The notes beneath the pieces are model-generated. The model was not told the origin of the DNA. It made no database searches and saw nothing but the letters and a program-made list of their open reading frames with translations. Positions 1 to 12,575 of a stretch of DNA of 12,575 nucleotides are shown in pieces. How positions within the stretch are numbered: the first letter of the stretch is position 1; each line of letters opens with the position of its first letter. The stretch is from a virus (Duplodnaviria; Heunggongvirae; Uroviricota; Caudoviricetes), in IMG/VR virus record IMGVR_UViG_2778261358_000013. One strand, given 5' to 3'. The translations under genes were made by a program, and so were the position numbers.

Positions 1-190
1 CAGAACGGCTATTCCATTCGAAGGTGAGCGCCATAATGCACTTGATGACGCCCGTTACCAGGCAAAATACGTTTCAGTTATCTGGCAAAAACTGATCCCG
101 AGTCAGGCTGATTCTTAATGTTCAACTGTCGCCGGTTGTGACTGGTATTCTGCAACCGGCGCTCGTCTGATGTAAGAGATAAAGAAAGCG

Positions 191-442
191 ATGAGCGAAG
201 TAATCATGATTGTCTCTCCCGGCAAATGGGTATCCGAAGAGCAGTTAATTGCGCTGAAAGGAATAAAAAAAGGTACGTTAAAAAAGGCCCGGGAAAAATC
301 GTTTATGGAAGGAAGGGAATATAAGCATGTCGCTCATGACGGTATGCCATGGGATAACAGTCCATGCTTTTACAACCTGGAAGAAATTGATCGCTGGATT
401 GAGCGCCAGGCATCTGCAAGACCAAGACGTCATCTTGCTTGA
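191..442 (+). CDS. Putative excisionase / small DNA-binding protein (Xis-like)
   Basis: 83-aa ORF immediately upstream of and co-oriented with the integrase (stop 440-442, int ATG at 462 or 477). Small basic protein typical of prophage Xis-like genes. No strong SD before ATG 191; function is by position only. Confidence 0.5.
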   Translation: MSEVIMIVSPGKWVSEEQLIALKGIKKGTLKKAREKSFMEGREYKHVAHDGMPWDNSPCFYNLEEIDRWIERQASARPRRHLA

Positions 443-461
443 CTAAAAGCAACACGAACCA

Positions 462-1757
462 ATGAGAGAAGCTGAAATGAAATATCCGACAGGCGTGGAA
501 AACCATGGAGGGAAATTACGTATCTGGTTTGTTTATAAAGGTGTAAGAGTCCGGGAAAATCTTGGGGTTCCTGACACAGCAAAAAACAGGCGCATTGCAG
601 GTGAGCTACGCGCCTCTGTTTGTTACGCAATAAAAACTGGCGCTTTCGACTATGCAAAACAGTTTCCCGCCTCACACAATCTGGAAAAATTTGGTGAGGC
701 CCGACAAGATTTAACCATAAAAGAACTGGCTGAAAAATTTCTGGCACTGAAAGAAACTGAAGTCGCAAAAACGTCACTCAACACGTACCGTGCCGTCATC
801 AAAAATATTCTGAGCATAATCGGTGAAAAAAATCTTGCATCATCGATTAATAAAGAAAAATTGCTGGCGGTACGTAAAGAGTTACTGACTGGATACCAGA
901 TCCCCAAAAGTAACTATATTGTTACACAACCCGGGAGATCGGCTGTTACCGTAAATAATTACATGACAAATCTTTACGCCGTGTTCCAGTTTGGTGTTGA
1001 TAACGGTTATCTGGCAGACAATCCATTTAAGGGGATCTCACCATTAAAGGAGTCGAGAACCATCCCGGATCCACTTTCGCGGGAGGAGTTTATCCGCCTT
1101 ATTGACGCGTGCAGAAATCAGCAAGCCAAAAATTTATGGTGTGTTTCCGTTTATACTGGGATTCGCCCTGGTGAACTCTGTGCGCTTGGATGGGAAGATA
1201 TAGATCTGAAAAATGGAACAATGATAATCAGAAGAAATCTGGCAAAAGACCGTTTTACAGTACCAAAAACACAGGCGGGAACCAATCGTGTGATTCACCT
1301 TATTAAGCCCGCAATCGACGCTCTCCGGAGTCAGATGGCACTAACGAGACTGAGCAAAGAGCATATCATCGATGTTCACCTCAGAGAATTCGGCAGAACA
1401 GAGAAACAAAAATGTACCTTTGTTTTTCAACCTGAAGTGTCAGCGAAAGTAAAAAATTATGGTGACCATTTTACCGTTGACTCAATAAGGCAGATGTGGG
1501 ACGCAGCGGTAAAGCGTGCCGGAATCCGCCATCGCAAATCGTATCAGTCGAGACACACTTATGCCTGCTGGTCGTTAACAGCAGGAGCTAACCCGGCATT
1601 CATTGCAAACCAGATGGGCCATGCAGATGCGCAAATGGTGTTTCAGGTGTACGGGAAATGGATGTCAGAAAATAATAATGCGCAGGTAACGCTGTTAAAT
1701 ACACAGTTAAGCGAGTTTGCCCCAACCATGCCCCATAACGAAGCGATGAAAAGTTAA
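462..1757 (+). CDS. Phage tyrosine integrase (site-specific recombinase)
   Basis: 431-aa ORF. C-terminal catalytic region has the tyrosine-recombinase signature (..SRHTYACWSL..GAN..IANQMGHADAQMVFQVYGKW.. giving the R, H-x-x-R and Y residues). An alternative start at ATG 477 (MKYPTG...) is possible. Confidence 0.85.
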   Translation: MREAEMKYPTGVENHGGKLRIWFVYKGVRVRENLGVPDTAKNRRIAGELRASVCYAIKTGAFDYAKQFPASHNLEKFGEARQDLTIKELAEKFLALKETEVAKTSLNTYRAVIKNILSIIGEKNLASSINKEKLLAVRKELLTGYQIPKSNYIVTQPGRSAVTVNNYMTNLYAVFQFGVDNGYLADNPFKGISPLKESRTIPDPLSREEFIRLIDACRNQQAKNLWCVSVYTGIRPGELCALGWEDIDLKNGTMIIRRNLAKDRFTVPKTQAGTNRVIHLIKPAIDALRSQMALTRLSKEHIIDVHLREFGRTEKQKCTFVFQPEVSAKVKNYGDHFTVDSIRQMWDAAVKRAGIRHRKSYQSRHTYACWSLTAGANPAFIANQMGHADAQMVFQVYGKWMSENNNAQVTLLNTQLSEFAPTMPHNEAMKS

Positions 1758-1944
1758 TTTTTTATTTATCAATTAGTTAGATTGAATGACTCTTGAAATC
1801 CATAAATTCAAGCGCAGTGCCCAGCCATCCCGATACTGCTGCTTTCACCAAATCCTTAGTGCTTCTTTCATGTTTTTCTATTGTCATAATGGTTATCTCT
1901 AAAAAAGAGGTAAGATGCGTACTACTTACTCGCCGTTATTGGTA

Positions 1945-2964
1945 TTATTCAGAAAAAGTGAGCAAGACTTTGCAGCAATGTTTTTGATCCTGTTCAAATA
2001 AACTAATGGCATCAGCAACATGCTGGAAATCAAACGTATGGGTAATTAATTTTTCTGGTTTAATTAACCCTTTACTTAACCAGTCGATAACAACCGGAAA
2101 TTTATTTGCATTTAAGCGTGAAGAGAAAATAGAGAGTTCTTTTCCGGTAATTCCTTGCTGAATCACTTCAGACGGTTCACTGGAGAAGCCCATCAATACA
2201 ATACGTGCCGCTGGAGAAGCCAGCGTTACGGCCTCTTTCAGGATAGAAGGATGACAAGCCGCATCGATAATTAATGTCGGCTTGATGCCTTTTTCAGCGA
2301 AAATCTCGCCAAGCGGTGTCTGGCTGTTATTAATCGCCCAGTCTGCCCCGCTCTCTTTCGCTTTTTCCAGTCGTTCATCAATGCGATCGGCAACAATCAC
2401 ATTTTTAACGTTATAGACGCCTTTTAATACCTGAACGATCGTCAGGCCGATTGGACCGGCACCATAAACCAGAACGGTATCATTTTCAGTCGGTTGACCA
2501 TGACCGGTAACGTTAGCCGCAATGGTAAAAGGTTCGATCATCACCGCATATTGATCGGCCACTGCTTCAGGAATTTTCCACGCATTTTTTGCCGGAACCA
2601 CGGCATATTCACTGAAACCACCGTCAGCGTGCACACCTAATACAGCAAGTGTCGTACAAACGTTCGGCTTACCTATAGAGCACGGATAGCAATGCCCACA
2701 GCTGACCACCGGATCGACAGCAACGCGTTCACCGACTCTGGCGCTTTCCACACCTTCACCCACCGCATCAATGACGCCAAAGAATTCATGACCAATGACG
2801 CGCGGATATTTCGCAAAAGGATTATGCCCACGGTAAATATGGCTATCTGAACCACAAATTCCGGCAAGTTTCACTTTTACTCGTACTTCACCCGCTGACG
2901 GGGTGGGTATTTCACGTTCGATAATCGACAGTTGATTCGGTTTTTCAATTAAAATGCTTTTCAT
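1945..2964 (-). CDS. rspB: Zn-dependent alcohol/sugar dehydrogenase, starvation-sensing protein RspB
   Basis: Translation matches my memory of E. coli RspB (MKSILIEKPNQLSIIEREIPTPSAGEVRVKVKLAGICGSDSHIYRG...; zinc motifs GHEFFG and CGHCYPC). Start set at ATG 2962-2964 with SD AGGAG 7 nt upstream, not the longer track ORF start at 2988. Lies 11 nt downstream of the rspA stop, operon-like. Confidence 0.85.
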   Translation of the reverse strand: MKSILIEKPNQLSIIEREIPTPSAGEVRVKVKLAGICGSDSHIYRGHNPFAKYPRVIGHEFFGVIDAVGEGVESARVGERVAVDPVVSCGHCYPCSIGKPNVCTTLAVLGVHADGGFSEYAVVPAKNAWKIPEAVADQYAVMIEPFTIAANVTGHGQPTENDTVLVYGAGPIGLTIVQVLKGVYNVKNVIVADRIDERLEKAKESGADWAINNSQTPLGEIFAEKGIKPTLIIDAACHPSILKEAVTLASPAARIVLMGFSSEPSEVIQQGITGKELSIFSSRLNANKFPVVIDWLSKGLIKPEKLITHTFDFQHVADAISLFEQDQKHCCKVLLTFSE

Positions 2965-2975
2965 TACCTTACTCC

Positions 2976-4189
2976 TTACCAGTTCCACAGCGTGCCATCT
3001 TCCAGACGTGCGACTGGCAGATAAGCAGGTTCATAGGGATATTTCGCCGCCAGCTTTTCATCGAATTCGATGCCAAGACCCGGTTTGTCTCCCGGATGCA
3101 TATAGCCGTTATCGAAAGTCCAGTTGTGCGGGAAGACTTCGAGCATTTGTTCGGAATAACCCATGTACTCCTGGACACCGAAATTGGGGACCCACAGATC
3201 AAAGTGCAGCGCCGCAGCCATGCAGACTGGTGACAAATCGGAAGGACCGTGTGAGCCAGTACGTACCTGATACAGCGAAGCAAAATCGGCAATCCGGCGC
3301 ATACCGGTAATTCCGCCTGCATGGGTCAGCGTGGTGCGGATATAATCGATGAGTTGCTCTTCAATCAGTTGTTTGCAGTCCCAGATGCTGTTGAAGACTT
3401 CACCCACTGCGATGGGTGTGACGGTATGTTGGCGAATGAGACGGAAGCATTCCTGGTTTTCCGCAGGCGTCGGGTCTTCCATCCAGAACATGCGATAATC
3501 TTCAATGCTTTTACCAAAGCGCGCCGCTTCAATAGGCGTTAAGCGATGGTACATGTCATGCAGCAAATGTTCATTAAAACCAAACTTGTTACGTACCGCG
3601 TCAAACAATTTCGGCATGAAATCGAGGTATTTCTCCGTCGACCACAGCTGCTCTTCCGGCCACTGTCCTTTGGTTGCGGGTTCATAAGCCAGACCTTTAC
3701 CTTTCGACATGCCGTAGGTGGTTTTCATACCAGGGATTCCGCACTGCACGCGGATGGCTTTGAATCCCAGCTCCTGATGACGGGCATAATCATCCAGAGC
3801 TTCATCAATACTGTGACCGGTGGTATGGCAATAAACCATCACCCTTCACGAGACGCGCCGCCGAGTAACTGGTAAAGCGGCATGTTGGTAGCTTTGGCTT
3901 TAATATCCCACAGCGCCATATCAACCGCTGAAATGGCCGACATCGTAACCGGACCGCGACGCCAGTAAGCACCTTTATAGAAAAACTGCCAGATATCTTC
4001 GATACGGTGCGCATCGCGACCAATAAGCTGCGGACAAAGGTGATCCTGCAAATAAGAGGCCACGGAAAGCTCACGTCCATTGAGGGTGGCATCCCCAAGG
4101 CCCGTAATACCGTCCTCAGTGGTGATTTTTAATGTGACGAAATTACGCCCCGGACAGGTAACAAAAACTTCAGCCTTTACGATCTTCAT
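2976..4189 (-). pseudogene. rspA: rspA (enolase-superfamily mannonate-dehydratase-like starvation-sensing protein) interrupted by a 1-bp frameshift
   Basis: Two adjacent track ORFs (3839..4222 and 2976..3842) together read as RspA ([42 protein letters not shown]... then ...[27 protein letters not shown]...). The frame breaks at ..LLGGASREG|, where the plus strand has a ccc run at 3847-3849 and an intact gene would need one more C. Real start ATG 4187-4189 with SD AAGGA. Confidence 0.8.
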
Positions 4190-4394
4190 GTTCGATTCCT
4201 TGCATCGCTTGTCGTGATGCATGAAATCTACGCAACTGAGCTACTACCATACAAGTATAAAGATCGAAAAAAGCCGGAGTGATCACAAAAAAAGGCGTAT
4301 ATTTGCGCTGTGAATGGTTGACAAAAGATGAAATAGAATACCTTTTGTCAGCTGACACTTCCTCTTATCTTATTGATAAAATGGATTTATGTTC

Positions 4395-4721
4395 CTACGT
4401 GCGCCCCCAGCCCGCAACAATGATCAACATGCCGCAAAGCGCAATCAACGCACCCGTCCAGTCATAAAGAGTCAGTTTCACGCCATCCACAACGCGCAGC
4501 CACATCAACGCCGTGCAGACATAAACGCCACCATAAGCCGCGTAAACACGCCCACTCGCCGCTGGATGCAACGTTAACAACCAGACAAACAGCGCCAGTG
4601 AAATCCCCGCCGGAAGCAACAGCCAGATACTGGCGTTTCGTTTTAACCACAACCAGGGCAGAAAGCATCCAATAATTTCACACAGCGCAGTAGCAAAAAA
4701 TAGTAACGTTGTTTTAATCAT
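4395..4721 (-). CDS. ynfA: UPF0060-family inner membrane protein YnfA
   Basis: 108-aa hydrophobic ORF ([26 protein letters not shown]...) matching my memory of E. coli YnfA, in the conserved position between rspA and ynfB. Confidence 0.85.
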
Positions 4722-4855
4722 CTTTGTCTCTTATTGACATCATGTATAGTTATAGGGCGACATAATATCATCAATATAAACACCCTCCTGGTACGTTTTG
4801 CGTCCGCAGTGGATGGTGTAGAATCACCTTTAATCATTCATACAGGGAATGAATT

Positions 4856-5197
4856 ATGAAAATCACTCTCAGCAAACGAATCGGCCTGCTCGCTATTCTG
4901 CTGCCTTGCGCACTGGCATTGAGCACAACTGTTCATGCCGAAACTAACAAACTGGTGATTGAGTCTGGCGACAGTGCACAAAGCCGCCAGCACGCCGCTA
5001 TGGAAAAAGAGCAATGGAATGACACGCGCAATCTGCGCCAGAAAGTGAATAAACGCACTGAAAAAGAGTGGGATAAAGCCGACGCCGCTTTTGATAACCG
5101 CGATAAATGTGAGCAAAGCGCCAACATCAATGCCTACTGGGAGCCCAATACTTTGCGCTGCCTGGACCGTCGAACTGGCCGCGTTATTACCCCCTAA
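4856..5197 (+). CDS. ynfB: Secreted/periplasmic small protein YnfB (signal peptide, function unknown)
   Basis: 113-aa ORF with N-terminal signal peptide ([28 protein letters not shown]|ETN). Divergent from ynfA and directly upstream of speG, as in E. coli. Confidence 0.8.
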
Positions 5198-5231
5198 CCT
5201 GTTATTGATTTAAGGAATGTAAGGACACGTT

Positions 5232-5792
5232 ATGCCAAGCGCCCACAGTGTTAAGCTACGCCCGCTGGAGCGTGAAGATTTACGCTATGTACATCAACTC
5301 GACAACAACGCCAGTGTGATGCGTTACTGGTTTGAGGAACCCTACGAAGCCTTTGTTGAACTCTCTGATCTGTATGATAAGCATATTCACGATCAGAGCG
5401 AACGGCGCTTTGTGGTGGAATGTGACGGCGAAAAAGCCGGTCTGGTGGAGCTGGTGGAAATTAACCATGTTCATCGCCGCGCAGAATTTCAGATAATTAT
5501 CTCCCCGGAGTATCAGGGGAAAGGTCTGGCAACCCGTGCCGCCAAATTAGCAATGGACTATGGCTTTACCGTTCTCAATCTCTATAAGCTGTATCTGATC
5601 GTTGATAAAGAGAATGAAAAAGCGATTCACATTTACCGCAAGCTTGGCTTTTCGGTTGAAGGTGAATTGATGCACGAGTTCTTTATTAATGGTCAATATC
5701 GTAATGCCATTCGCATGTGTATATTCCAGCATCAGTATCTGGCAGAGCACAAAACACCGGGTCAGACTCTCCTGAAGCCGACCGCACAATAG
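5232..5792 (+). CDS. speG: Spermidine N1-acetyltransferase (GNAT family)
   Basis: 186-aa [44 protein letters not shown]... recognised as SpeG. GNAT acetyl-CoA motif region (..[18 protein letters not shown]..) present. Confidence 0.9.
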
Positions 5793-5794
5793 CA

Positions 5795-6505
5795 TTAATA
5801 ATAATCGATCGTATTTTTGATGGTGTAAACCCGTTCGACGGCGGGTTTTACTCCTTCATCAACAATGATTAGCTGACAGTCCACCGGATTAGCGTGACTG
5901 TCATATTCACAGCTCTGTTTTACATTACCAACCCGTTGATTATTCAGTAAAGTAACCGCTGTGTAATCTAATTTTTTGATCGGATCCGTTGATGGCGTGG
6001 CGCTGACAGATAATGTTTTGTCGTTACTTTTCGTGGTTTTACCCAGCGGATAACCCTGATCATCATAGCGATATTCCATCTGCATTTGTTTGCTGCTGGC
6101 TTTAATCACGAAGCCATTATCATCGGTTTCCCAACTCACCCCGGCAGAAGGTAATTCTGCTAGCTGGCATTTTCCCTGTAAACGTACTCTCTTCTCCAGC
6201 GTCTCGGCATCACGGTAATAATTGGCGTCCAGTACCAGAGCGACCACGGTATTATTTTCCAGATCCAGTAATTCGAGTGAATCAAAACAGCCTTCTTCCG
6301 ACAAAGTCCCAGAAACACGTTTCGTCACTTCACCTTGCTCATCCATTAATGTCTGAGTGAAATCTTTTACCGGACCACGCAGCGGATCAAAATCGAATTC
6401 ATTAGAGAAACTGGCCATCTCAGGGGTAAATGAAAGTGTTACCTCTGTGCGGTCACATCCTGTGAGGAATATCGCGAGTAAGCATGGTAGTAATTTGTAT
6501 TTCAC
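5795..6505 (-). CDS. ynfC: Lipoprotein YnfC (UPF0257 family)
   Basis: Convergent with speG (stops 2 nt apart). Lipobox LLAIFLTGC near the N-terminus. Start placed at GTG 6503-6505 (VKYKLLPCLL..) to give a 236-aa lipoprotein precursor; the track ORF starts 12 codons upstream at ATG 6541. Confidence 0.8.
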   Translation of the reverse strand: MKYKLLPCLLAIFLTGCDRTEVTLSFTPEMASFSNEFDFDPLRGPVKDFTQTLMDEQGEVTKRVSGTLSEEGCFDSLELLDLENNTVVALVLDANYYRDAETLEKRVRLQGKCQLAELPSAGVSWETDDNGFVIKASSKQMQMEYRYDDQGYPLGKTTKSNDKTLSVSATPSTDPIKKLDYTAVTLLNNQRVGNVKQSCEYDSHANPVDCQLIIVDEGVKPAVERVYTIKNTIDYY

Positions 6506-6609
6506 AACAGTCACCAGAGAGTAGAGATGATTCTCAATCATAGTAGCAAATACAGTACTTTACACGTTAAATGCTATGCTTAAAGAAGTTATCTTCGCGT
6601 AAGGAGCTT

Positions 6610-6918
6610 ATGATGAAACTCTCAACCTGCTGTGCCGCGCTTCTGCTCGCCCTCGCCTCACCCGTGGTACTCGCCGCGCCGGGATCCTGTGAGCGCATAC
6701 AGAGCGATATATCACAGCGCATTATCAATAATGGCGTACCCGAAAGCAGCTTCACGTTAAGTATTGTACCCAATGACCAGGTTGATCAGCCTGATTCCCA
6801 GGTCGTCGGCCATTGCGCTAATGATACGCATAAAATTCTCTATACCCGCACCACCAGCGGTAACGTCTCTGCTCCCGCGCAGTCTACCCAGGATGGCGCG
6901 CCTGCCGAACCGCAGTAA
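6610..6918 (+). CDS. ynfD: Small secreted protein YnfD (DUF1161-like)
   Basis: Start ATG 6610 (or 6613) preceded by SD AAGGAG at 6601-6606. Signal peptide MMKLSTCCAALLLALASPVVLA|AP. Assigned by sequence plus conserved position upstream of ynfE. Confidence 0.75.
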   Translation: MMKLSTCCAALLLALASPVVLAAPGSCERIQSDISQRIINNGVPESSFTLSIVPNDQVDQPDSQVVGHCANDTHKILYTRTTSGNVSAPAQSTQDGAPAEPQ

Positions 6919-6934
6919 TACATTATCGACTGAA

Positions 6935-6962
6935 CGCCGGATACGACACATCCGGCGATTTG
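6935..6962 (+). terminator. Candidate rho-independent terminator after ynfD
   Basis: Perfect 8-bp stem cgccggat (6935-6942) / atccggcg (6950-6957) with 7-nt loop acgacac, followed by ATTTG 17 nt after the ynfD stop. Confidence 0.45.
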
Positions 6963-7003
6963 AACATACAACATAATCCCACCTTATTACTCATACCCTT
7001 CTA

Positions 7004-7017
7004 TTGATATGGATTAA
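7004..7017 (+). promoter_or_regulatory. FNR-like half-palindrome TTGAT-N4-ATTAA about 100 bp upstream of ynfE
   Basis: ttgatatggattaa matches the FNR/CRP-family consensus TTGAT-N4-ATCAA with one mismatch. The ynfEFGH operon is anaerobically expressed in E. coli (established); the site assignment is inference. Confidence 0.3.
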
Positions 7018-7116
7018 TAATTCTTAACCCAAAATGGGTAGACTCCCTCTATTGTTAGCGCGCTAAATATTCAATATATAAACATTTATATAACGATAAA
7101 GAACAGGGAGTGAGTT

Positions 7117-8526
7117 ATGTCCAAAAATGACCGAATGGTGGGCATCAGCCGCAGAACACTCGTTAAATCAACCGCGATAGGTTCTCTGGCGCTGGCTGCA
7201 GGCGGTTTTTCTTTACCGTTCACCCTGCGCAGTGCAGCGGCAACGGTACAACAGGCCAGCGAAAAAGTGATCTGGGGTGCCTGTTCCGTCAACTGTGGTA
7301 GCCGCTGTGCACTTCGTCTACATGTTAAAGATAATGAAGTGACCTGGGTGGAAACTGACAATACCGGCAGCGATGAGTACGGCAACCATCAGGTACGCGC
7401 CTGTTTGCGCGGTCGCTCCATCCGCCGGCGTATTAATCATCCCGATCGCTTGAATTACCCAATGAAACGCGTGGGTACACGCGGTGAAGGCAAATTCGAA
7501 CGGATTAGCTGGGATGAAGCCCTGGATACTATCGCCAGTAGCCTGAAAAAAACCGTCGAACAATATGGCAATGAGGCTGTATATATTCAGTACTCTTCGG
7601 GGATTGTTGGCGGCAATATGACCCGCTCTTCGCCATCAGCCTCGGCGGTCAAACGCCTGATGAACTGCTACGGCGGTTCACTCAATCAGTATGGCTCCTA
7701 CAGCACCGCGCAAATTTCCTGTGCCATGCCCTACACCTACGGCAGTAATGATGGCAACAGCACCACGGATATTGAAAACAGCAAGCTGGTCGTGATGTTT
7801 GGTAACAACCCGGCAGAAACCCGCATGAGCGGCGGTGGCATCACTTATCTTCTTGAAAAAGCGCGCGAGAAATCGAACGCCAAAATGATTGTTATCGATC
7901 CGCGATATACCGATACGGCTGCTGGTCGTGAAGATGAATGGCTCCCTATTCGCCCGGGCACCGATGCCGCGCTGGTTGCGGGTATTGCCTGGGTATTGAT
8001 TAACGAAAATCTCGTTGATCAACCTTTTCTCGATAAATACTGCGTCGGCTATGACGAAAAAACCTTACCCGCAGATGCACCCAAAAATGGTCACTATAAA
8101 GCCTATATTCTTGGTGAAGGTGATGATAACACAGCGAAAACGCCGCAGTGGGCTTCGCAAATTACCGGTATCCCGGTAGACCGTATCATCAAACTGGCGC
8201 GTGAAATTGGCACAGCAAAACCCGCTTATATCTGCCAGGGCTGGGGGCCGCAACGCCAGGCAAACGGCGAACTGACTGCACGCGCTATTGCTATGTTACC
8301 TATTTTGACGGGCAATGTCGGCATCAGCGGCGGAAATAGTGGCGCGCGTGAATCGACCTATACCATTACCATAGAACGCCTGCCGGTGCTGGATAATCCG
8401 GTCAAAACGTCAATCTCCTGCTTCAGCTGGACAGATGCTATCGATCATGGTCCGCAAATGACGGCAATCCGCGACGGCGTCCGCGGCAAAGATAAACTGG
8501 ATGTGCCCATTAAGTTCATCTGGAAC
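7117..8526 (+). pseudogene. ynfE: 5-prime portion (~470 codons) of ynfE, molybdopterin oxidoreductase / DMSO-reductase-family catalytic subunit, truncated by foreign DNA
   Basis: Tat signal (MSKNDRMVGISRRTLVKSTAIGSLALAAGG...AAA) and N-terminal Cys cluster (CSVNCGSRCALRLH) typical of DmsA/YnfE-type enzymes. The homologous reading ends at ...DVPIKFIWN (codon ending 8526). The track ORF then runs 22 unrelated codons (FKDLKRLLVRVTRDLSRPEVLH) to a stop at 8593-8595. Full-length proteins of this family are about 800 aa. Confidence 0.8.
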
Positions 8527-8787
8527 TTCAAGGACTTGAAGCGGTTACTCGTTAGAGTCACGAGAGACCTTAGTAGGCCTGAGGTCCTGCATTGAGTCAA
8601 GGACTTTGTGTCATTCTTTGTGCCAGACTTGTGTCATTAGACGGGATTTCTAGACGGCTGGTCAGGACCCCGGTGGCCTCGGTCTGGACTTGAGGCGGGG
8701 CTATGGGGGAAGTCTGCTGGCTTAATGTATTAGATGGTCATTCACATTTTTCTGTCAGAAACCATCGGTCCCACTGTGAGTCCAAAC
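8527..8787 (-). repeat. Non-coding terminal-repeat-like region of the foreign segment, with T7-group-like end motifs on the minus strand
   Basis: No ORF longer than 15 codons on the minus strand. Minus strand carries CTCACAGTG-G-GACC (8767-8780) and TTCCCCCATAG (8701-8711), resembling the first ~35 nt of the T7 terminal repeat (TCTCACAGTGTACGGACCTAAAGTTCCCCCATAGGGGG, from memory). Short direct repeats tcaaggactt (8528, 8596) and gactt(t)gtgtcatt (8600, 8618). Confidence 0.4.
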
Positions 8788-8943
8788 CTAAGCTCCCAGA
8801 AGCCCACCCACAGCCTTAGACAGAGTGTCGAATACATTCACACCGAGTCGACCGGAGAGGACCATATAGAGACCCACAGAGAGGAACACGAGTTTATAGA
8901 CCAGAGTCAGGAGGGACCTTAGGTCTGCGGAAGTCATGGACAT
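8788..8943 (-). CDS. Small single-pass membrane protein (51 aa), hypothetical
   Basis: Hand-translated ORF below the track size cutoff: MSMTSADLRSLLTLVYKLVFLSVGLYMVLSGRLGVNVFDTLSKAVGGLLGA. Strong SD AGGAGG (complement of 8949-8954) 4 nt upstream of ATG 8941-8943. One hydrophobic helix (LLTLVYKLVFLSVGLYMVL). Last ORF before the terminal non-coding region. Confidence 0.45.
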   Translation of the reverse strand: MSMTSADLRSLLTLVYKLVFLSVGLYMVLSGRLGVNVFDTLSKAVGGLLGA

Positions 8944-8996
8944 AAAGCCTCCTTCGTCTATTGTACTACTGCACTAGATAACTAGTACAAAACAAA

Positions 8997-9021
8997 GGTC
9001 CAGACCATTGGTCCAGACCAT
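8997..9021. repeat. Tandem direct repeat 2 x ggtccagaccat (period 13)
   Basis: 8997-9008 and 9010-9021 are identical 12-mers separated by one T, in a 238-bp non-coding gap (8944-9181). Each copy contains the GGTC-NN-GACC palindrome. Confidence 0.6.
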
Positions 9022-9181
9022 AGTTATCATGATGATTGGAACGATTGAACGGTAGGCACTTTACATCTCACCCACTGTTCAGCTTCAGCCAGTGACCAGC
9101 ATAGCCGCTTATAGACTCTGCGTGTCATCCAGATTGTTGCTTGATATCGTCCACCCTCCACAGGCTGTATAGATGTCTTAA

Positions 9182-9421
9182 TCACAGTGACAGGCCACCA
9201 CCTGAAGTCCTGCTGATATTCAGTCCAGACTTACCCCTGCTCATGGTCTTACCTCCCTCGGTCTCATGACCTTGGGTATCGACTACAGCTTGCTGAGCGT
9301 CATCTGGAGGAGCTACAGGAGGAGCTACAGGAGGCGGGACCGAAGCCCCACCTTGAGTCCCACCACCACCTGTCAGGCCCTTGGCGATGGACCTGAAGCC
9401 TTTACTAATGCTCTTACCCAT
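9182..9421 (-). CDS. Hypothetical Gly/Pro/Ala-rich small protein (79 aa), probably disordered
   Basis: ORF begins 5 nt after the stop of the upstream 328-aa gene, with no separate SD (possible translational coupling). Contains GGGGTQGG and PPPVAPPVAPP, the latter encoded by a 12-bp tandem repeat. Low-complexity, so the coding call is tentative. Confidence 0.35.
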   Translation of the reverse strand: MGKSISKGFRSIAKGLTGGGGTQGGASVPPPVAPPVAPPDDAQQAVVDTQGHETEGGKTMSRGKSGLNISRTSGGGLSL

Positions 9422-9426
9422 TGGTC

Positions 9427-10413
9427 TTACGCTTCGGTCTTGGTGAACTTCAGGCGTTTGACTACAGGCAGGACGGCAGTAGCTGAGCCAGTGCCCATCT
9501 TGATGGTCGTAGCAGCTTCAGCGACAACGAACACTTTACCGAGGATTTCCAGAGAGTGAGACTGAGAGTCGCCATCACGTGAAAGGATGACCGTAATATT
9601 CTCGCCATCGTGACGGAAGCAACCGAAGCTAAGAGCCGTAAAACGCTTAGCCATCATGAACACGCCACGGTCTTCACCGTTGTAATACGCAATATCCGTC
9701 CCCAGCATATCGACGATAGCGTCTTCACCACCGAAGCCCTGCTTAGCAGCCAGACGGGAGAGAGCCTTGAGGTGTGACTCATGGGCGATGATACCGTAAT
9801 CAGTAACCTCAGAACCGAAAGAAGATTCGGTGTTGTCATACAGAGCATCCATGATAGCATCTGCCTTAGCGGTCAGGCTGCCAGTCAGGACCGGAAGCTC
9901 TACGGTCTTCAACAGTTTGGAGGACTCCAGAACGTCGACCATGCGAGCGTTGATGGTACGGACCACATTCTCACAGATGTTCATAGCATCCTGCTGAAGT
10001 GTGCCCTGAGTGAATCCGGTGGATGACTTGGCGTCCCAGAGCTTGGTCTGCTCAGAGATGAGAATAGCCCGCTCGATTGGTTCGACCACGATTTCTTGTC
10101 CAGACGGAACGGTCACGACTTCAGGTCGCTTACCACCACGGACAGGAACAACCACAGAGCGGTTAGCCAGAGTGTGAGCAATGATTGGAGTAGGCAGGCT
10201 ATTGCGGGTAGGCAGGACTTCTACAGGGAACGGGATGTTCTCCTGAGCGGATTTCAGAACACCATTCAGCATTGTCTTAACCAGTTTAGCCAGCTCAAAG
10301 GCGTAGACCTGAGGGTCTGCGTTAGTTGGCAATCCTTCGTTAATCTGAATGTTGTCGGTGTCGGTGATACGTACTGGCTCAATGCCGAACTGTAAAGCGT
10401 CTTTAATCGTCAT
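9427..10413 (-). CDS. Hypothetical protein (328 aa), function unknown
   Basis: Long ORF. The track start at 10422 is a TTG; the likely start is ATG 10411-10413 (MTIKDALQFG...) with SD AGGAGA 9 nt upstream. No catalytic or nucleotide-binding motif recognised by eye. Confidence 0.7.
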   Translation of the reverse strand: MTIKDALQFGIEPVRITDTDNIQINEGLPTNADPQVYAFELAKLVKTMLNGVLKSAQENIPFPVEVLPTRNSLPTPIIAHTLANRSVVVPVRGGKRPEVVTVPSGQEIVVEPIERAILISEQTKLWDAKSSTGFTQGTLQQDAMNICENVVRTINARMVDVLESSKLLKTVELPVLTGSLTAKADAIMDALYDNTESSFGSEVTDYGIIAHESHLKALSRLAAKQGFGGEDAIVDMLGTDIAYYNGEDRGVFMMAKRFTALSFGCFRHDGENITVILSRDGDSQSHSLEILGKVFVVAEAATTIKMGTGSATAVLPVVKRLKFTKTEA

Positions 10414-10488
10414 AATAATCAATCTCCTGAATTAGTTTGGATACTGTGGGTCCCGACATCAGGTCAGGACCACTTGTGTGTCTGTGTC

Positions 10489-10980
10489 TTAGAGGCTGTC
10501 CATCCAGTTGTCCGTGGACTCAATGTCAGCGACCATAGAAGCACGGGAGCGCCCAGCGGAATGGGTAGCACTGCGGAGGTGCTCACCATAGGTCCGGCGT
10601 TCAGCTTTGACCTGTTCACGGCGCTGTAGCTCTTTCTGCCACTCTGCATCAGTCATGTTCTCTTCACGCATACGCTCAGCCTGAATGCGCTGCTCTTTAG
10701 CAATACGCTCAGCTTCGGCTCGCTTGTTCTGCTGGCGGCGACCATAGGCGGTCATCAGGTCATTACTGAAGAAGTTACCAATGGTCACGCCAGCTTCAGC
10801 CAGAGCTTCCAGTAACTCCATTGCCTCGCGGCTGGTAGACGGCAGGCCTGACAGGTAGCCCGGAATGAGGGTCTTGATAGCGAGCGACAGCGGATAGGGC
10901 TGACCATCCAGACTCACAGTATTCTCGTAGAGATTGATGTCGGTGACTGACAGTTTCCAGTCTTGGTTATTGAATAACAT
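10489..10980 (-). CDS. Hypothetical protein (163 aa) with charged Arg/Glu/Gln-rich predicted helical segment
   Basis: SD AGGAG 8 nt upstream of ATG 10978-10980. Central segment QQNKRAEAERIAKEQRIQAERMREENMTDAEWQKELQRREQVKAERR is typical of a coiled coil or single alpha-helix domain. Confidence 0.65.
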   Translation of the reverse strand: MLFNNQDWKLSVTDINLYENTVSLDGQPYPLSLAIKTLIPGYLSGLPSTSREAMELLEALAEAGVTIGNFFSNDLMTAYGRRQQNKRAEAERIAKEQRIQAERMREENMTDAEWQKELQRREQVKAERRTYGEHLRSATHSAGRSRASMVADIESTDNWMDSL

Positions 10981-11079
10981 AGTAATTACTCCTCTTGAGA
11001 GTTGAGACTATCGGTCAACCACAGGCGTGTTCAGTCCTGCGGCGTCTCCCCGCATCGGTCATCTCAAAAGGTGTTTAAA

Positions 11080-11262
11080 TTAGGCAGACAGTTTCATAGA
11101 GACCAGTTGCGCTATTAGCTCGTCTCGTGATTGGTGCTGGCGGGTCTCATCTTCTGGGTCCAGACCTAGCTCCTTCAGGATGACTTCAGTCCGGTAGCCA
11201 CGGTAACGGAGAGTCATGCGACCCTCAGGTGTGCGTGGGTCGATATGTTGTTTAGTTGTCAT
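11080..11262 (-). CDS. Hypothetical small protein (60 aa)
   Basis: ATG 11260-11262 lies 2 nt after the TAA stop of the upstream 84-aa gene, with SD GAGGA 9 nt upstream. Same strand and codon style as its neighbours. Confidence 0.5.
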   Translation of the reverse strand: MTTKQHIDPRTPEGRMTLRYRGYRTEVILKELGLDPEDETRQHQSRDELIAQLVSMKLSA

Positions 11263-11264
11263 TG

Positions 11265-11519
11265 TTAGAAGTCCTCGTTAGACCAATCATCCACGTCAAA
11301 TTCACTGGTGATAGGTGCTTGGAAGTTAGGTAGACCCTCTGGTATCTCTAGAGGCAGTCGCTCGTCGATTCTCAGTGCCATCTCTTCGTATATATGCCGA
11401 AGCAGAGAAGTCAGTAAGATAGGGTCCACAGGATGCTCAGGGCCGTGTCTCTCAATGAAGCACATGGTTGTCGCTATTGACTCCATAATCAGTTCATCAG
11501 TGAGTCGCTTAGAACCCAT
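11265..11519 (-). CDS. Strongly acidic small protein (84 aa) with acidic C-terminal tail ending in Phe (...EFDVDDWSNEDF)
   Basis: The track ORF is 101 aa from ATG 11570, but the likely start is ATG 11517-11519 (MGSKRLTDELIMES...), which overlaps the last codons of the upstream 281-aa gene (sequence ctATGGGTTCTAAgcg; stop at 11509-11511) as in translational coupling. About 18 Asp/Glu against 6 Lys/Arg. Confidence 0.55.
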   Translation of the reverse strand: MGSKRLTDELIMESIATTMCFIERHGPEHPVDPILLTSLLRHIYEEMALRIDERLPLEIPEGLPNFQAPITSEFDVDDWSNEDF

Positions 11520-12354
11520 AGTCGGACCCCTTGCCCGCTGCTGCTTTCTGGGACTTTGTAGCCTTACCATTCAGGTGAGAATCCACCAGACGACGGACAA
11601 CCTTGATATTGGATGTGCGCATGTCATGAGCGATATCCTTCCAGTTATCCTTCAGCCAGTCATAACCCTTGCGTAGAATCTTGATGGTAGGCTCTTTGTC
11701 GTTAGGCTGTGGCTGTAGACGATAGTAGCCGTTGATCTCACCTTTCTTATTGAAGATGGCTCGTGGACGTCCGGTCGATAGGTCTATAGCCGTAATGCCA
11801 AACTCAGTAACACGCTTGGTGTAGAATGGGTTAGGACGACACAGGGTCTTCAGATATCCAGTCAGGACGCTAGCTGTCAGCAGCTTAGAGCTGGTCAACT
11901 TAAGGTCCAGAGCTTTAATAACCTCGGTAGGCGTGGCTCCTGACTTGGAGTCCAGCTTGGAGTCGAGGACGATAGCACCGGGCGCATAGCTGATAGCTTT
12001 AGTCTGTGCAACCTGAAGTTTCTGGGCCTGAAGTTCGAGGACCTCTTGCTCCTTCTGGCGAATATAGGCTAGGACCTTACGACGCACAGCTTTAGACTCA
12101 CGCATCCCGACTAGTAGAAGCTGGTCAGTGTTGAGGGTATAGCTTTTAACGTCCTTCCCGAAGCTTACGAAAATTTCGTAGGTCACATTTTGACCTTCCA
12201 GCTCATCCTCAATACGGGACACAAAGTCGTTATTACGGACAGGCTTCTCCCCCGCTTCTTCACGAGCCGGATTAATAACCTTGGTTAGAAAATCGTGGGA
12301 GGTCATAGACACAAGCTGGTCGAGGTTAATGATGCTAATTTCTTTGGATGACAT
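11509..12354 (-). CDS. Hypothetical protein (281 aa), function unknown
   Basis: Long ORF with SD AAGGAG 9 nt upstream of ATG 12352-12354. Lys/Arg-rich C-terminus. No motif recognised by eye. First gene of the minus-strand run visible in the window. Confidence 0.7.
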   Translation of the reverse strand: MSSKEISIINLDQLVSMTSHDFLTKVINPAREEAGEKPVRNNDFVSRIEDELEGQNVTYEIFVSFGKDVKSYTLNTDQLLLVGMRESKAVRRKVLAYIRQKEQEVLELQAQKLQVAQTKAISYAPGAIVLDSKLDSKSGATPTEVIKALDLKLTSSKLLTASVLTGYLKTLCRPNPFYTKRVTEFGITAIDLSTGRPRAIFNKKGEINGYYRLQPQPNDKEPTIKILRKGYDWLKDNWKDIAHDMRTSNIKVVRRLVDSHLNGKATKSQKAAAGKGSDYGF

Positions 12355-12496
12355 ATCGTTGTACTCCTTTTGTTATGCCTCCTGAAGTCACACCCTGAAA
12401 GCCTACTCAAGCCCCCAACGATAGGGAGACTCACAGGCAACAGGAGACATACAGAAAGACTTGAGGTAATAAGGTCGTGTGAAGACCATAGTTGAT

Positions 12497-12534
12497 AAGT
12501 AAGCGTCAACGGAGCACCGTATTGACGCTTATTT
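12497..12534. promoter_or_regulatory. Strong inverted repeat / stem-loop upstream of the 281-aa gene (candidate processing site, terminator or operator)
   Basis: Perfect 10-bp inverted repeat taagcgtcaa (12500-12509) / ttgacgctta (12522-12531) around a 12-nt centre that itself pairs cgg/ccg. Flanked by aataaataa on one side. Lies ~150 bp upstream of the 281-aa start. Confidence 0.4.
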
Positions 12535-12575
12535 ATTAGTGAGTACTACGTTCCATGGCAGGAGTTCGTCAACTC

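Follow-up and report, generated by a model that had tools for sequence, protein, structure and literature searches.

The question raised by this locus is why about 4 kb of DNA joined to an Escherichia coli chromosome should be almost free of Dam (GATC) and Dcm (CCWGG) sites. The window analysed here is the whole 12,575-nt stretch of IMG/VR virus record IMGVR_UViG_2778261358_000013. Its left 8.5 kb is E. coli chromosome, and positions 8528–12489 are part of an integrative island inserted in ynfE. The island belongs to what looks like a previously unrecognised family, and from sequence we consider its members to be probable satellites of K1F/EcoDS1-type (Kayfunavirus) phages, that is, of virulent T7-like phages.

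The site depletion was evaluated first. The preliminary description of the segment 8527–12575 had counted by eye one GATC (11734–11737) and no CCAGG or CCTGG, and these counts were exact. Its statement that the chromosomal part is not depleted was also correct: 35 GATC and 18 CCWGG occurred in 1–8526, with 13 GATC in the first 3 kb. In 1000 dinucleotide-preserving shuffles of the segment, 19.7 ± 4.0 GATC (minimum 8) and 9.8 ± 3.0 CCWGG (minimum 2) were expected, and no shuffle was as low as the observed counts; the flank counts lay inside the shuffle expectation. A second null shuffled synonymous codons in 8 open reading frames (ORFs; 3318 nt), keeping all proteins and the codon usage. It gave 10.5 ± 2.6 GATC and 6.3 ± 2.1 CCWGG, and values as low as those observed were reached in 0 and 1 of 2000 shuffles, respectively. 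The Markov expectation for the segment was 12.8 GATC and 15.1 CCWGG. The change in site density is sharp at the island junction 8527/8528, since the last flank sites are a GATC at 8443 and a CCWGG at 8256. Base composition does not explain the depletion, because G+C is 51% in the island segment and 47% in the flank. A prophage integrase gene in the flank (462–1757), used as an internal control, contained 5 GATC against 4.9 expected. The single GATC of the segment sits inside a regulator module (11245–12348) that is swapped in comparison with the nearest relatives. As the preliminary description had proposed, tetranucleotide profiles were compared; the correlation of the segment was r = 0.58 with T7, against r = −0.12 with the adjoining flank. 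Other odd words in the segment are CGCG (1), TGCA (4), and AGCT (31). The AGCT count, taken over 8528–12489, is twice the 15.8 predicted by base composition and close to the Markov expectation of 35.5. CTAG occurs 8 times in 8528–12489, whereas the flank strongly avoids it (1 in 8.5 kb).

The preliminary description had read these counts as lytic-phage DNA, and this reading held only in part. On the one side stand the T7-like site avoidance and composition, a homologue of the T7 protein gp7.3, and a mimic of the T7-type genome-end junction. On the other side, the proposed search of phage databases gave no nucleotide match among 50,697 phage records except at the last 86 nt of the segment (12490–12575), which are the end of an insertion sequence (IS) outside the depleted island. 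Moreover, there are attachment (att) sites in ynfE, full copies carry a tyrosine integrase, and the segment proved to belong to a conserved chromosomal island of about 6.5 kb present in 310 complete E. coli genomes. Such a close match to a chromosomal island had been named in advance as fatal to the lytic-phage view; the island family is itself adapted to T7-like phages, and the core intuition is thus partly supported in a modified form.

The left part of the window carries, in order, a prophage excisionase and integrase, rspB, rspA, ynfA, ynfB, speG, ynfC, ynfD, and ynfE. The 5' part of ynfE (7117–8527, plus strand), whose GATC and CCWGG content is normal, matches K-12 ynfE at 100% up to 8527, where the island interrupts it; relatives are annotated at this point with a truncated dimethyl sulfoxide/selenate reductase subunit A. 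That an integrative element interrupts ynfE has been recorded before (PMC7192596). By comparing the junctions of the island in E. coli UMNK88 (locus L001) with the uninterrupted K-12 ynfE, an 11-nt att core, CATCTGGAACT, was derived. It lies at 8517–8527 (attL), recurs at the UMNK88 attR (L001 ~15557–15567), and occurs once in the empty K-12 site. The insert in UMNK88 is 6569 bp long and ends, beside attR, with a 540-residue tyrosine integrase (PF00589, 1.7e-14). The element therefore has att sites, a recombinase of its own, and a known empty site.

The window holds the attL-proximal ~4 kb of the island (8528–12489, all genes on the minus strand; 1 GATC, 0 CCWGG), about two thirds of its length, and the integrase end lies outside. 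It is colinear with the UMNK88 island at 96% identity up to 11244, differs in 11245–12348, and matches again to 12489. The IS end that follows (12490–12575) is 97–100% identical to the terminal sequences of elements that carry a transposase in lambda-like and Stx phages. Because the IS cuts the island at 12490, the integrase, the cargo, and the helper-type promoters are absent from the window, and because the IS is repeated, up to 41 places per genome match the window DNA. Being interrupted, the window copy may be inactive. In phage 4A7 the matching IS adjoins a 537-residue transposase. IS66-family elements interrupt two other islands at differing positions (Citrobacter L003 5009–7321; L033 9591–12206), which suggests that IS inactivation of these islands is recurrent.

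The module formed by the capsid-like gene and the 163-residue gene described below was found in 310 of 5,426 complete E. coli genomes (~6%), always on the chromosome, in one or two copies, and at 77–97% identity. Members share a layout of a tyrosine integrase, variable cargo, a KilA-N/Rha/Ant-type regulator, the 163-residue protein, an HK97-fold capsid protein, the gp7.3 homologue, and small ORFs. They occupy at least three integration sites: ynfE, a tRNA-Gly gene beside the ETT2 locus, and one further site. Diverged members were found in Citrobacter freundii (capsid protein 44% identical) and in Rouxiella (74%), where the island lies between ~110-bp repeats. The size of the full island is conserved at 6.46–6.64 kb across the three genera, which is ~1/6 of the helper genomes (39.2–40.7 kb).

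The absence of sites extends over the family. No GATC or CCWGG was found in the UMNK88 island (6569 bp) or the Rouxiella island (6413 bp), and the E. coli islands L034 and L035 each contain 1 GATC and 0 CCWGG; the more divergent L032 and Citrobacter L003 contain 5 GATC with 1–2 CCWGG and 4 GATC with 0 CCWGG, respectively. In these two islands three of the leftover GATC cluster within ~45 nt (L003 9251–9295; L032 9656–9701), in or near an opposite-strand ORF (146 residues in L003, 102 in L032) that is absent from the island of the window. Observed/expected ratios were pooled over 39 kb of islands and compared with T7 plus EcoDS1 and with host flanks. They were 0.10, 0.07, and 0.89 for GATC; 0.02, 0.04, and 0.76 for CCAGG; 0.04, 0.03, and 0.78 for CCTGG; and 0.66, 0.60, and 0.86 for all 6-bp palindromes, in that order. 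The control word CCSGG was not depleted in the islands, so the effect is specific to the Dcm/EcoRII word. Across the 16 palindromic 4-mers the ratios of the islands followed those of the phages (r = 0.88) far more closely than those of the host (r = 0.29), and sites for PstI, SacI, XhoI, SmaI, ClaI, BspEI, and PvuII are absent or nearly so in islands and phages alike. For comparison, T7 itself (39.9 kb) carries 6 GATC and 2 CCWGG, and EcoDS1 (39.3 kb) carries 13 GATC and 3 CCWGG. Island tetranucleotide frequencies correlated with T7 at r 0.54–0.62 and with their own flanks at −0.1 to −0.2.

Could the depletion be a by-product of foreign origin, brought recently from a donor with restriction or mutational bias against GATC and CCWGG and without function in E. 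coli? The island is compositionally foreign in its G+C and in its unavoided CTAG, unlike the E. coli flank. The depletion nevertheless persists in three genera and in members that differ at most synonymous sites, it is specific (CCWGG, not CCSGG), its pattern agrees with that of the helper phages for each word, and it is shared by genes of different origin within the island; we therefore give this explanation hardly any credence. Between family members the capsid gene shows a synonymous divergence (dS) of up to 1.3–1.7 and a nonsynonymous-to-synonymous ratio (dN/dS) of 0.10–0.13, indicating purifying selection. Since dS is saturated, shared ancestry does not account for the missing sites, and selection must still be acting to exclude them. 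The integrase genes and the gene of a cargo protein, RAZR, are also purged (synonymous-shuffle p from <0.001 to 0.047). Integrases and RAZR cannot derive from a virulent phage, yet they are depleted, and the coverage of integrase and cargo genes argues that selection maintains the depletion. Restriction-site avoidance is far stronger in non-temperate than in temperate phages (PMC6286503), and for this reason the selection acting on the island would be that of a virulent helper.

We then asked what links the islands to T7-like phages. A T7-like genome of ~40 kb encodes a single-subunit RNA polymerase, a T7-type replisome, the portal gp8, the capsid protein gp10, the tail proteins gp11/12/17, and the terminase gp18/19. 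In the full islands no polymerase, primase, portal, terminase, or tail gene was detected by Pfam, PHROG, and NCBIfam scans or by tblastn against T7 and EcoDS1; when all island proteins were compared with these two phages by tblastn, only the gp7.3 homologue and, in L035, a gp3.8-like HNH endonuclease gave matches. Since most such genes are lacking, the island would have to borrow virion and replication functions.

The coding strand of the UMNK88 island carries promoters for a single-subunit polymerase. One of them, CTAAACTATCACTATAGGGAGACC, is identical at 24 of 24 positions to the phi10-type promoter of K1F, EcoDS1, CR44b, PE3-1, SH3-5, and many other Kayfunavirus phages, whose genomes contain ~8 copies each, annotated there as 'promoter'. 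Equivalent promoters occupy corresponding positions in UMNK88, L032–L035, L042, and the Rouxiella island. In L035 one of the promoters is followed by an AT-rich stretch, as in the primary origin of T7. In UMNK88 two promoters stand in tandem (L001 13015–13060, minus strand), the perfect phi10-type copy and AATAAGCACTCACTATAGGGG, which has a T7-identical core. AATAAGCACTCACTATAGGGG was considered as a sign of a second helper genus and set aside, as no phage group in the phage records or IMG/VR shares its specificity region and the matches there were weak or single chance ones. The word ATCTGTT, the T7 class-II pause and concatemer-junction word, lies downstream of the promoters in UMNK88 and is disrupted in L035; no claim is made for it. 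A 'T7-like promoter' seen by eye near 12530 in the window is actually the IS end.

The second link is a putative pac/terminase site in the window itself (8664–8758, minus strand), a mimic of ~85 nt that aligns nearly without gaps with the right-end junctions of T7 and EcoDS1; the alignment (A2) also includes five other islands. The mimicked part runs from the last ~20 nt of unique sequence through the cut site into the terminal repeat, of which it takes in the first ~60 nt, with a predicted cut-site equivalent, TCTAATACAT, at 8725–8734 (minus strand). The conserved words are AAAAAT-TGAG, ATCT-A-A, and CCCCCATAG-CC-AGTCCAGACC-AAGGCC. When the block of the window was scanned without gaps along both strands of the whole phage genome, its best position in EcoDS1 was 39056, next to the start of the terminal repeat at 39075, with 47 of 79 identities (z-score 7.1; 38 at the next best position). 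In T7 the best position was 39759, where the repeat starts at 39778, and blocks of three other islands selected the same EcoDS1 position. The block was present in all nine islands examined (the window and eight others), ~200 nt from the att core. A mimic of the far repeat end (GGTCTCT, ~175 nt past the junction) was also considered and rejected, because the word falls in a 24-nt insertion peculiar to the window and is absent from L035.

These cis elements, like the composition, might have been inherited together with gp7.3 from a temperate T7-like (Autographiviridae) prophage that has since decayed, and some Autographiviridae do carry integrases. Decay fits poorly with what the islands contain. 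The same compact gene set of ~6.5 kb recurs in E. coli, Citrobacter, and Rouxiella with intact ORFs, a dN/dS of ~0.1, and saturated dS; at such divergence an inherited composition would have decayed, and remnants would vary in content. Nor do the islands hold fragments of RNA polymerase, DNA polymerase, portal, or tail genes, in sequence their capsid protein detectably resembles neither gp10 nor any phage record, and nucleotide similarity to phage genomes ends with the promoters and the junction block. A decayed prophage is thus very improbable.

The third link is the gp7.3 homologue, a 79-residue protein (9182–9421, minus strand) matching phrog_1320, 'host range and adsorption protein' (E 3e-11). 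At 39% identity it aligns from end to end with gp7.3 of the Kayfunavirus EcoDS1 (pairwise E 4e-14), and its tblastn matches are confined to T7-like phages, the closest being Kayfunavirus; the Pfam family VirionAssem_T7 matched below cutoff (E 0.0055). In T7, gp7.3 is a virion protein required for tail assembly and adsorption.

Directly upstream lies the gene for a 328-residue HK97-fold major-capsid-like protein (9427–10413, minus strand), assigned by the fold match of its predicted model. Its sequence family is narrow and orphan, being found in E. coli, Shigella, Citrobacter, and Rouxiella, and a profile search of 1.84 billion representatives returned only 64 relatives. In some of these the C terminus bears an Ig-like domain (Big_2 or He_PIG) of the kind present on phage heads. 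The AlphaFold model is of moderate confidence (pLDDT 63, pTM 0.62). No sequence similarity was detected to gp10 of the T7 group, to the 50,697 phage records, or to PDB sequences, and homology to gp10A was rejected (hhalign probability 0.1%), as only the fold matches. The gene directly upstream encodes a 163-residue protein with a charged, coiled-coil-like centre (10489–10980, minus strand), and its position is kept in all islands. It had no significant family match in Pfam, PHROG, or NCBIfam, and as a gp9 homologue it was discarded for want of detectable similarity; it is possibly a scaffold or size-determination factor. RefSeq calls some alleles 'peptidase M16 family protein' (L034 9058–9549 and other E. 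coli records), a name that Pfam and NCBIfam do not support and that looks like an annotation artefact.

The cargo slot beside the integrase is variable (L034 11502–12161; L035 11634–12368; L001 13046–13513) and resembles the defence hotspots of P4-like satellites. It holds a 155-residue ORF in UMNK88 and, in L035, an HNH endonuclease homologous to T7 gp3.8 (5e-19). In many members the cargo is a DUF4145 protein identified by PADLOC as PD-T7-4 (RAZR; 1.3e-102), whose gene overlaps the integrase gene in L032–L034, L042, and the Rouxiella island (L005). RAZR is a HEPN zinc-finger RNase.

Such cargo invites the explanation that the island is a phage-triggered defence island that is not transmissible. 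The promoters would then be infection sensors for RAZR, the regulator, and a capsid-like decoy, the junction would be a decoy that titrates terminase, and the island would spread by other means. This accounts for the cargo and perhaps for the capsid protein. It gives no obvious reason why an always-methylated chromosomal island should purge GATC, CCWGG, and 6-bp palindromes from all its genes, including the integrase, and it leaves unexplained the conserved size, the gp7.3 homologue, and the intact integrase and att sites at several loci in several genera; islands of the UMNK88 and HNH types lack RAZR and retain all other features. We regard this explanation as unlikely, and the defence and satellite lifestyles are not mutually exclusive.

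Here, we propose a model for the island as a satellite of T7-like phages, in which the first three steps rest on sequence evidence and the last two are inferred. The island would be silent in the chromosome; no sigma-70-like promoter was found on the coding strand of its part in the window. Upon infection, the helper's RNA polymerase would read the helper-type promoters, switching on the regulator, the capsid-like protein with its partner, and the gp7.3-like virion protein. The copy of the genome-end junction would let the helper terminase recognise island DNA. The integrase would then excise the island, and the helper replisome would copy it. Packaging could use either small shells made of the HK97-fold protein that the island encodes or heads of helper size filled with ~6-mer concatemers, with delivery through helper tails and with use of the helper portal and core. 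Made in a fast lytic infection, island DNA would leave the cell unmethylated or under-methylated and would be exposed to whatever threatens the helper genome, namely restriction of the EcoRII type (CCWGG) or specific for GATC, further type II enzymes, and possibly MutH at unmethylated GATC. As a result, selection would clear the entire element of GATC, CCWGG, and many 6-bp palindromes, as in T7-like phages.

A self-encapsidating mini-satellite may be envisaged as well, whose own shell of the orphan HK97-fold protein is mounted on the helper portal and tail, and for which the absence of Dam and Dcm sites serves as a 'self' label in T7-type infections. The chromosomal copy would never be methyl-marked and would thus be epigenetically indistinguishable from helper-replicated DNA. 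It could outlast the breakdown of host DNA by the helper, make use of helper machinery for replication and packaging, and evade methylation-sensitive and methylation-dependent nucleases in the next host. We judge this version rather unlikely. McClelland (1985), Deschavanne and Radman (1991), and Krüger et al. (1988) are said to have given the classical explanations of site avoidance in T7; a specific statement of why T7 avoids GATC was not found in open-access literature.

Several points weigh against the satellite assignment. The helper-type promoters lie outside the window, where the link to a helper consists of gp7.3, the junction mimic, and the composition. The capsid assignment depends on a model of moderate confidence (pLDDT 63), and the role given to the 163-residue protein is a guess. 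A length of 6.5 kb fits no obvious capsid size, and its being 1/6 of the helper length could be coincidence. The most divergent members retain 4–5 GATC. Searches with the DNA of the segment (blastn) and with the capsid protein (tblastn) gave no match in the 50,697 phage records beyond the IS end, and packaged copies were not found in phage or virome collections. Matches to the capsid gene in IMG/VR are contigs of 18–73 kb with isolate-type IMG identifiers; being long and so labelled, they are probably chromosomal regions and were not accepted as evidence of packaging. Element-sized Logan contigs (6.4–6.8 kb) were likewise rejected as circles, since att repeats or flanks delimit them and their two ends do not overlap. 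Induction, excision, packaging, and transfer are predictions from sequence, as are helper replication, the packaging mode, and the selective agent. GATC may be removed by restriction, by MutH, or by biology specific to T7, in T7 itself as in the islands.

The remaining features of the island part are as follows, all ORFs being on the minus strand. In the order of transcription, the genes encode the 281-residue regulator, two small ORFs, the 163-, 328-, and 79-residue proteins, and ORFs of 52 and 51 residues. The regulator (11509–12354) is anti-repressor-like (PHROG anti-repressor families, E 6e-13 to 2e-6) and contains the GATC at 11734. Its slot is variable, with a KilA-N protein in UMNK88 (Pfam 1.3e-9) and a Rha-type or other protein in further relatives. 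The ORF of 84 residues (11265–11519; 101 from an upstream ATG) belongs to the same swapped module, and the region 11245–12348 has no match in the UMNK88 island. The next ORF has 60 residues (11080–11262; 55 in UMNK88). Downstream of the gp7.3 homologue, the 52-residue ORF (9027–9185) is followed by a terminator-like hairpin, GGTCTGGACCAATGGTCTGGACC, with a T-run (8997–9019, minus strand) found in a scan for transcription signals, and by a hydrophobic 51-residue ORF (8788–8943) that is identical in UMNK88 and has no family match. Three TTTGTG(T/C)CA repeats (8606–8636) are putative arm-type sites of the integrase; they recur close to each end of the UMNK88 island, and other ynfE-type islands have them too. 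The insertion of ~24 nt, GGTTACTCGTTAGAGTCACGAGAGAC (8543–8568), which contains the hairpin CTCGT...ACGAG, is missing in UMNK88 and L035, whose islands are nearly identical in other respects, and is present at a different position in L041. A structured RNA such as rRNA was considered as the cause of an ORF-poor, site-poor tract and ruled out, as Rfam at the gathering threshold and ARAGORN detected no structured RNA or tRNA. In the flank, ynfE (7261–8516) is 71% identical in nucleotides to its downstream paralogue ynfF. The excisionase-like ORF (191–442) and the 431-residue integrase (462–1757) are the end of a Qin-type prophage adjoining rspB, with normal site content.

T7 and its relatives are among the best-studied viruses, yet no satellite exploiting T7 or Kayfunavirus was found described in open-access papers or bioRxiv. 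If the assignment is true, T7-like phages have a 6.5-kb parasite in ~6% of complete E. coli genomes, one that is activated by the helper polymerase, copies a packaging signal, brings a capsid protein of its own, and ferries anti-T7 defences (RAZR/PD-T7-4). It would supply a genomic context and a transfer route for RAZR, which is now under structural study, and would bear on phage therapy with K1F-type phages. It would also make it possible to study in a natural system why GATC and CCWGG are avoided in T7-like genomes: as the element resides mostly in a Dam+ Dcm+ chromosome and stays site-free, selection would act in the short lytic or transfer phase. A simple way of screening also suggests itself, in which a sharply bounded tract lacking these sites in an enterobacterial chromosome can point to an element tied to virulent phages.

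Finally, the island was compared with known systems. It resembles Studiervirinae phages in avoiding the same words equally (observed/expected 0.02–0.10 against 0.03–0.07), in palindrome avoidance, and in tetranucleotides. In contrast to them it is integrated and heritable, has an integrase, and lacks RNA polymerase, replisome, portal, terminase, and tail genes; with only gp7.3 and the gp3.8-like HNH of L035 matching, and no nucleotide match beyond short cis elements, it is not a T7-like phage or prophage. Chung and Hinkle reportedly showed in 1990 that plasmids with a T7 origin and concatemer junction are packaged by T7, and the island likewise pairs phage-polymerase promoters with genome-end junction sequence. 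Those plasmids are laboratory constructs with authentic T7 DNA, whereas the elements of the island are natural, diverged, and placed within an integrative element that has its own genes, and their mimicry is limited to the right junction with ~60 nt at the start of the repeat. Among classical satellites, P4 is marked by its alpha primase and sid/psu/delta, PLE by repA, and PICI by primase-rep and terS; none of these hallmark genes was found in the Pfam, PHROG, and NCBIfam scans. cf-PICI elements are larger and have a full head module (portal, protease, adaptors, small terminase). The island differs from them (e.g. EcCI2; PDB 9gyi) in having only the capsid-like protein and one partner, with no portal, protease, or terminase in the same scans of island ORFs, and in its presumed virulent T7-like helper.

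PD-T7-4 was isolated by selection for T7 resistance and, according to the searched text of the paper, was noted to 'often overlap an integrase gene' (PMC9519451), as RAZR does in many members of the family. It was renamed RAZR in a study whose searched text states that the portal proteins of T7 and T3 activate it (PMC13017515). The searched text of neither paper describes the surrounding element as a satellite: that of PMC13017515 contains neither 'satellite' nor 'integrase', and the satellite mention displayed from PMC9519451 concerns P4 satellite prophages only. These papers treat the gene alone. The closest full relative of the window island, UMNK88, has the 155-residue ORF in the slot. The available text of a pan-genome survey suggests that integrase-only defence islands may be uncharacterised satellites (PMC10121019), and the present family, if the assignment is true, would account for such islands.

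PICMI elements (phage-inducible chromosomal minimalist islands), which reportedly protect their host against competing phages, have a core of the Int/AlpA/primase type, no capsid gene, and headful-like packaging of 8-mers. The island differs in carrying a capsid-like protein, a gp7.3 homologue, helper-polymerase promoters, and a site-specific junction mimic, and in lacking a replication gene; its sites are ynfE, tRNA-Gly, and one other, not fis, and neither AlpA nor a primase was found among its genes. In the text consulted, PICMI are ~6-kb Vibrionaceae islands of virulent phages, located next to fis and 1/8 of the helper genome in length (PMC10803314). The likeness to the island family lies in the very small size, the possession of an integrase, the dependence on a virulent phage (deduced in our case), and a length that is an integer fraction of the helper genome (1/8 for PICMI, ~1/6 for the island). 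As far as that text goes, PICMI is a precedent for an island of 6 kb that travels with a virulent phage in the form of an integer concatemer (PMC10803314).

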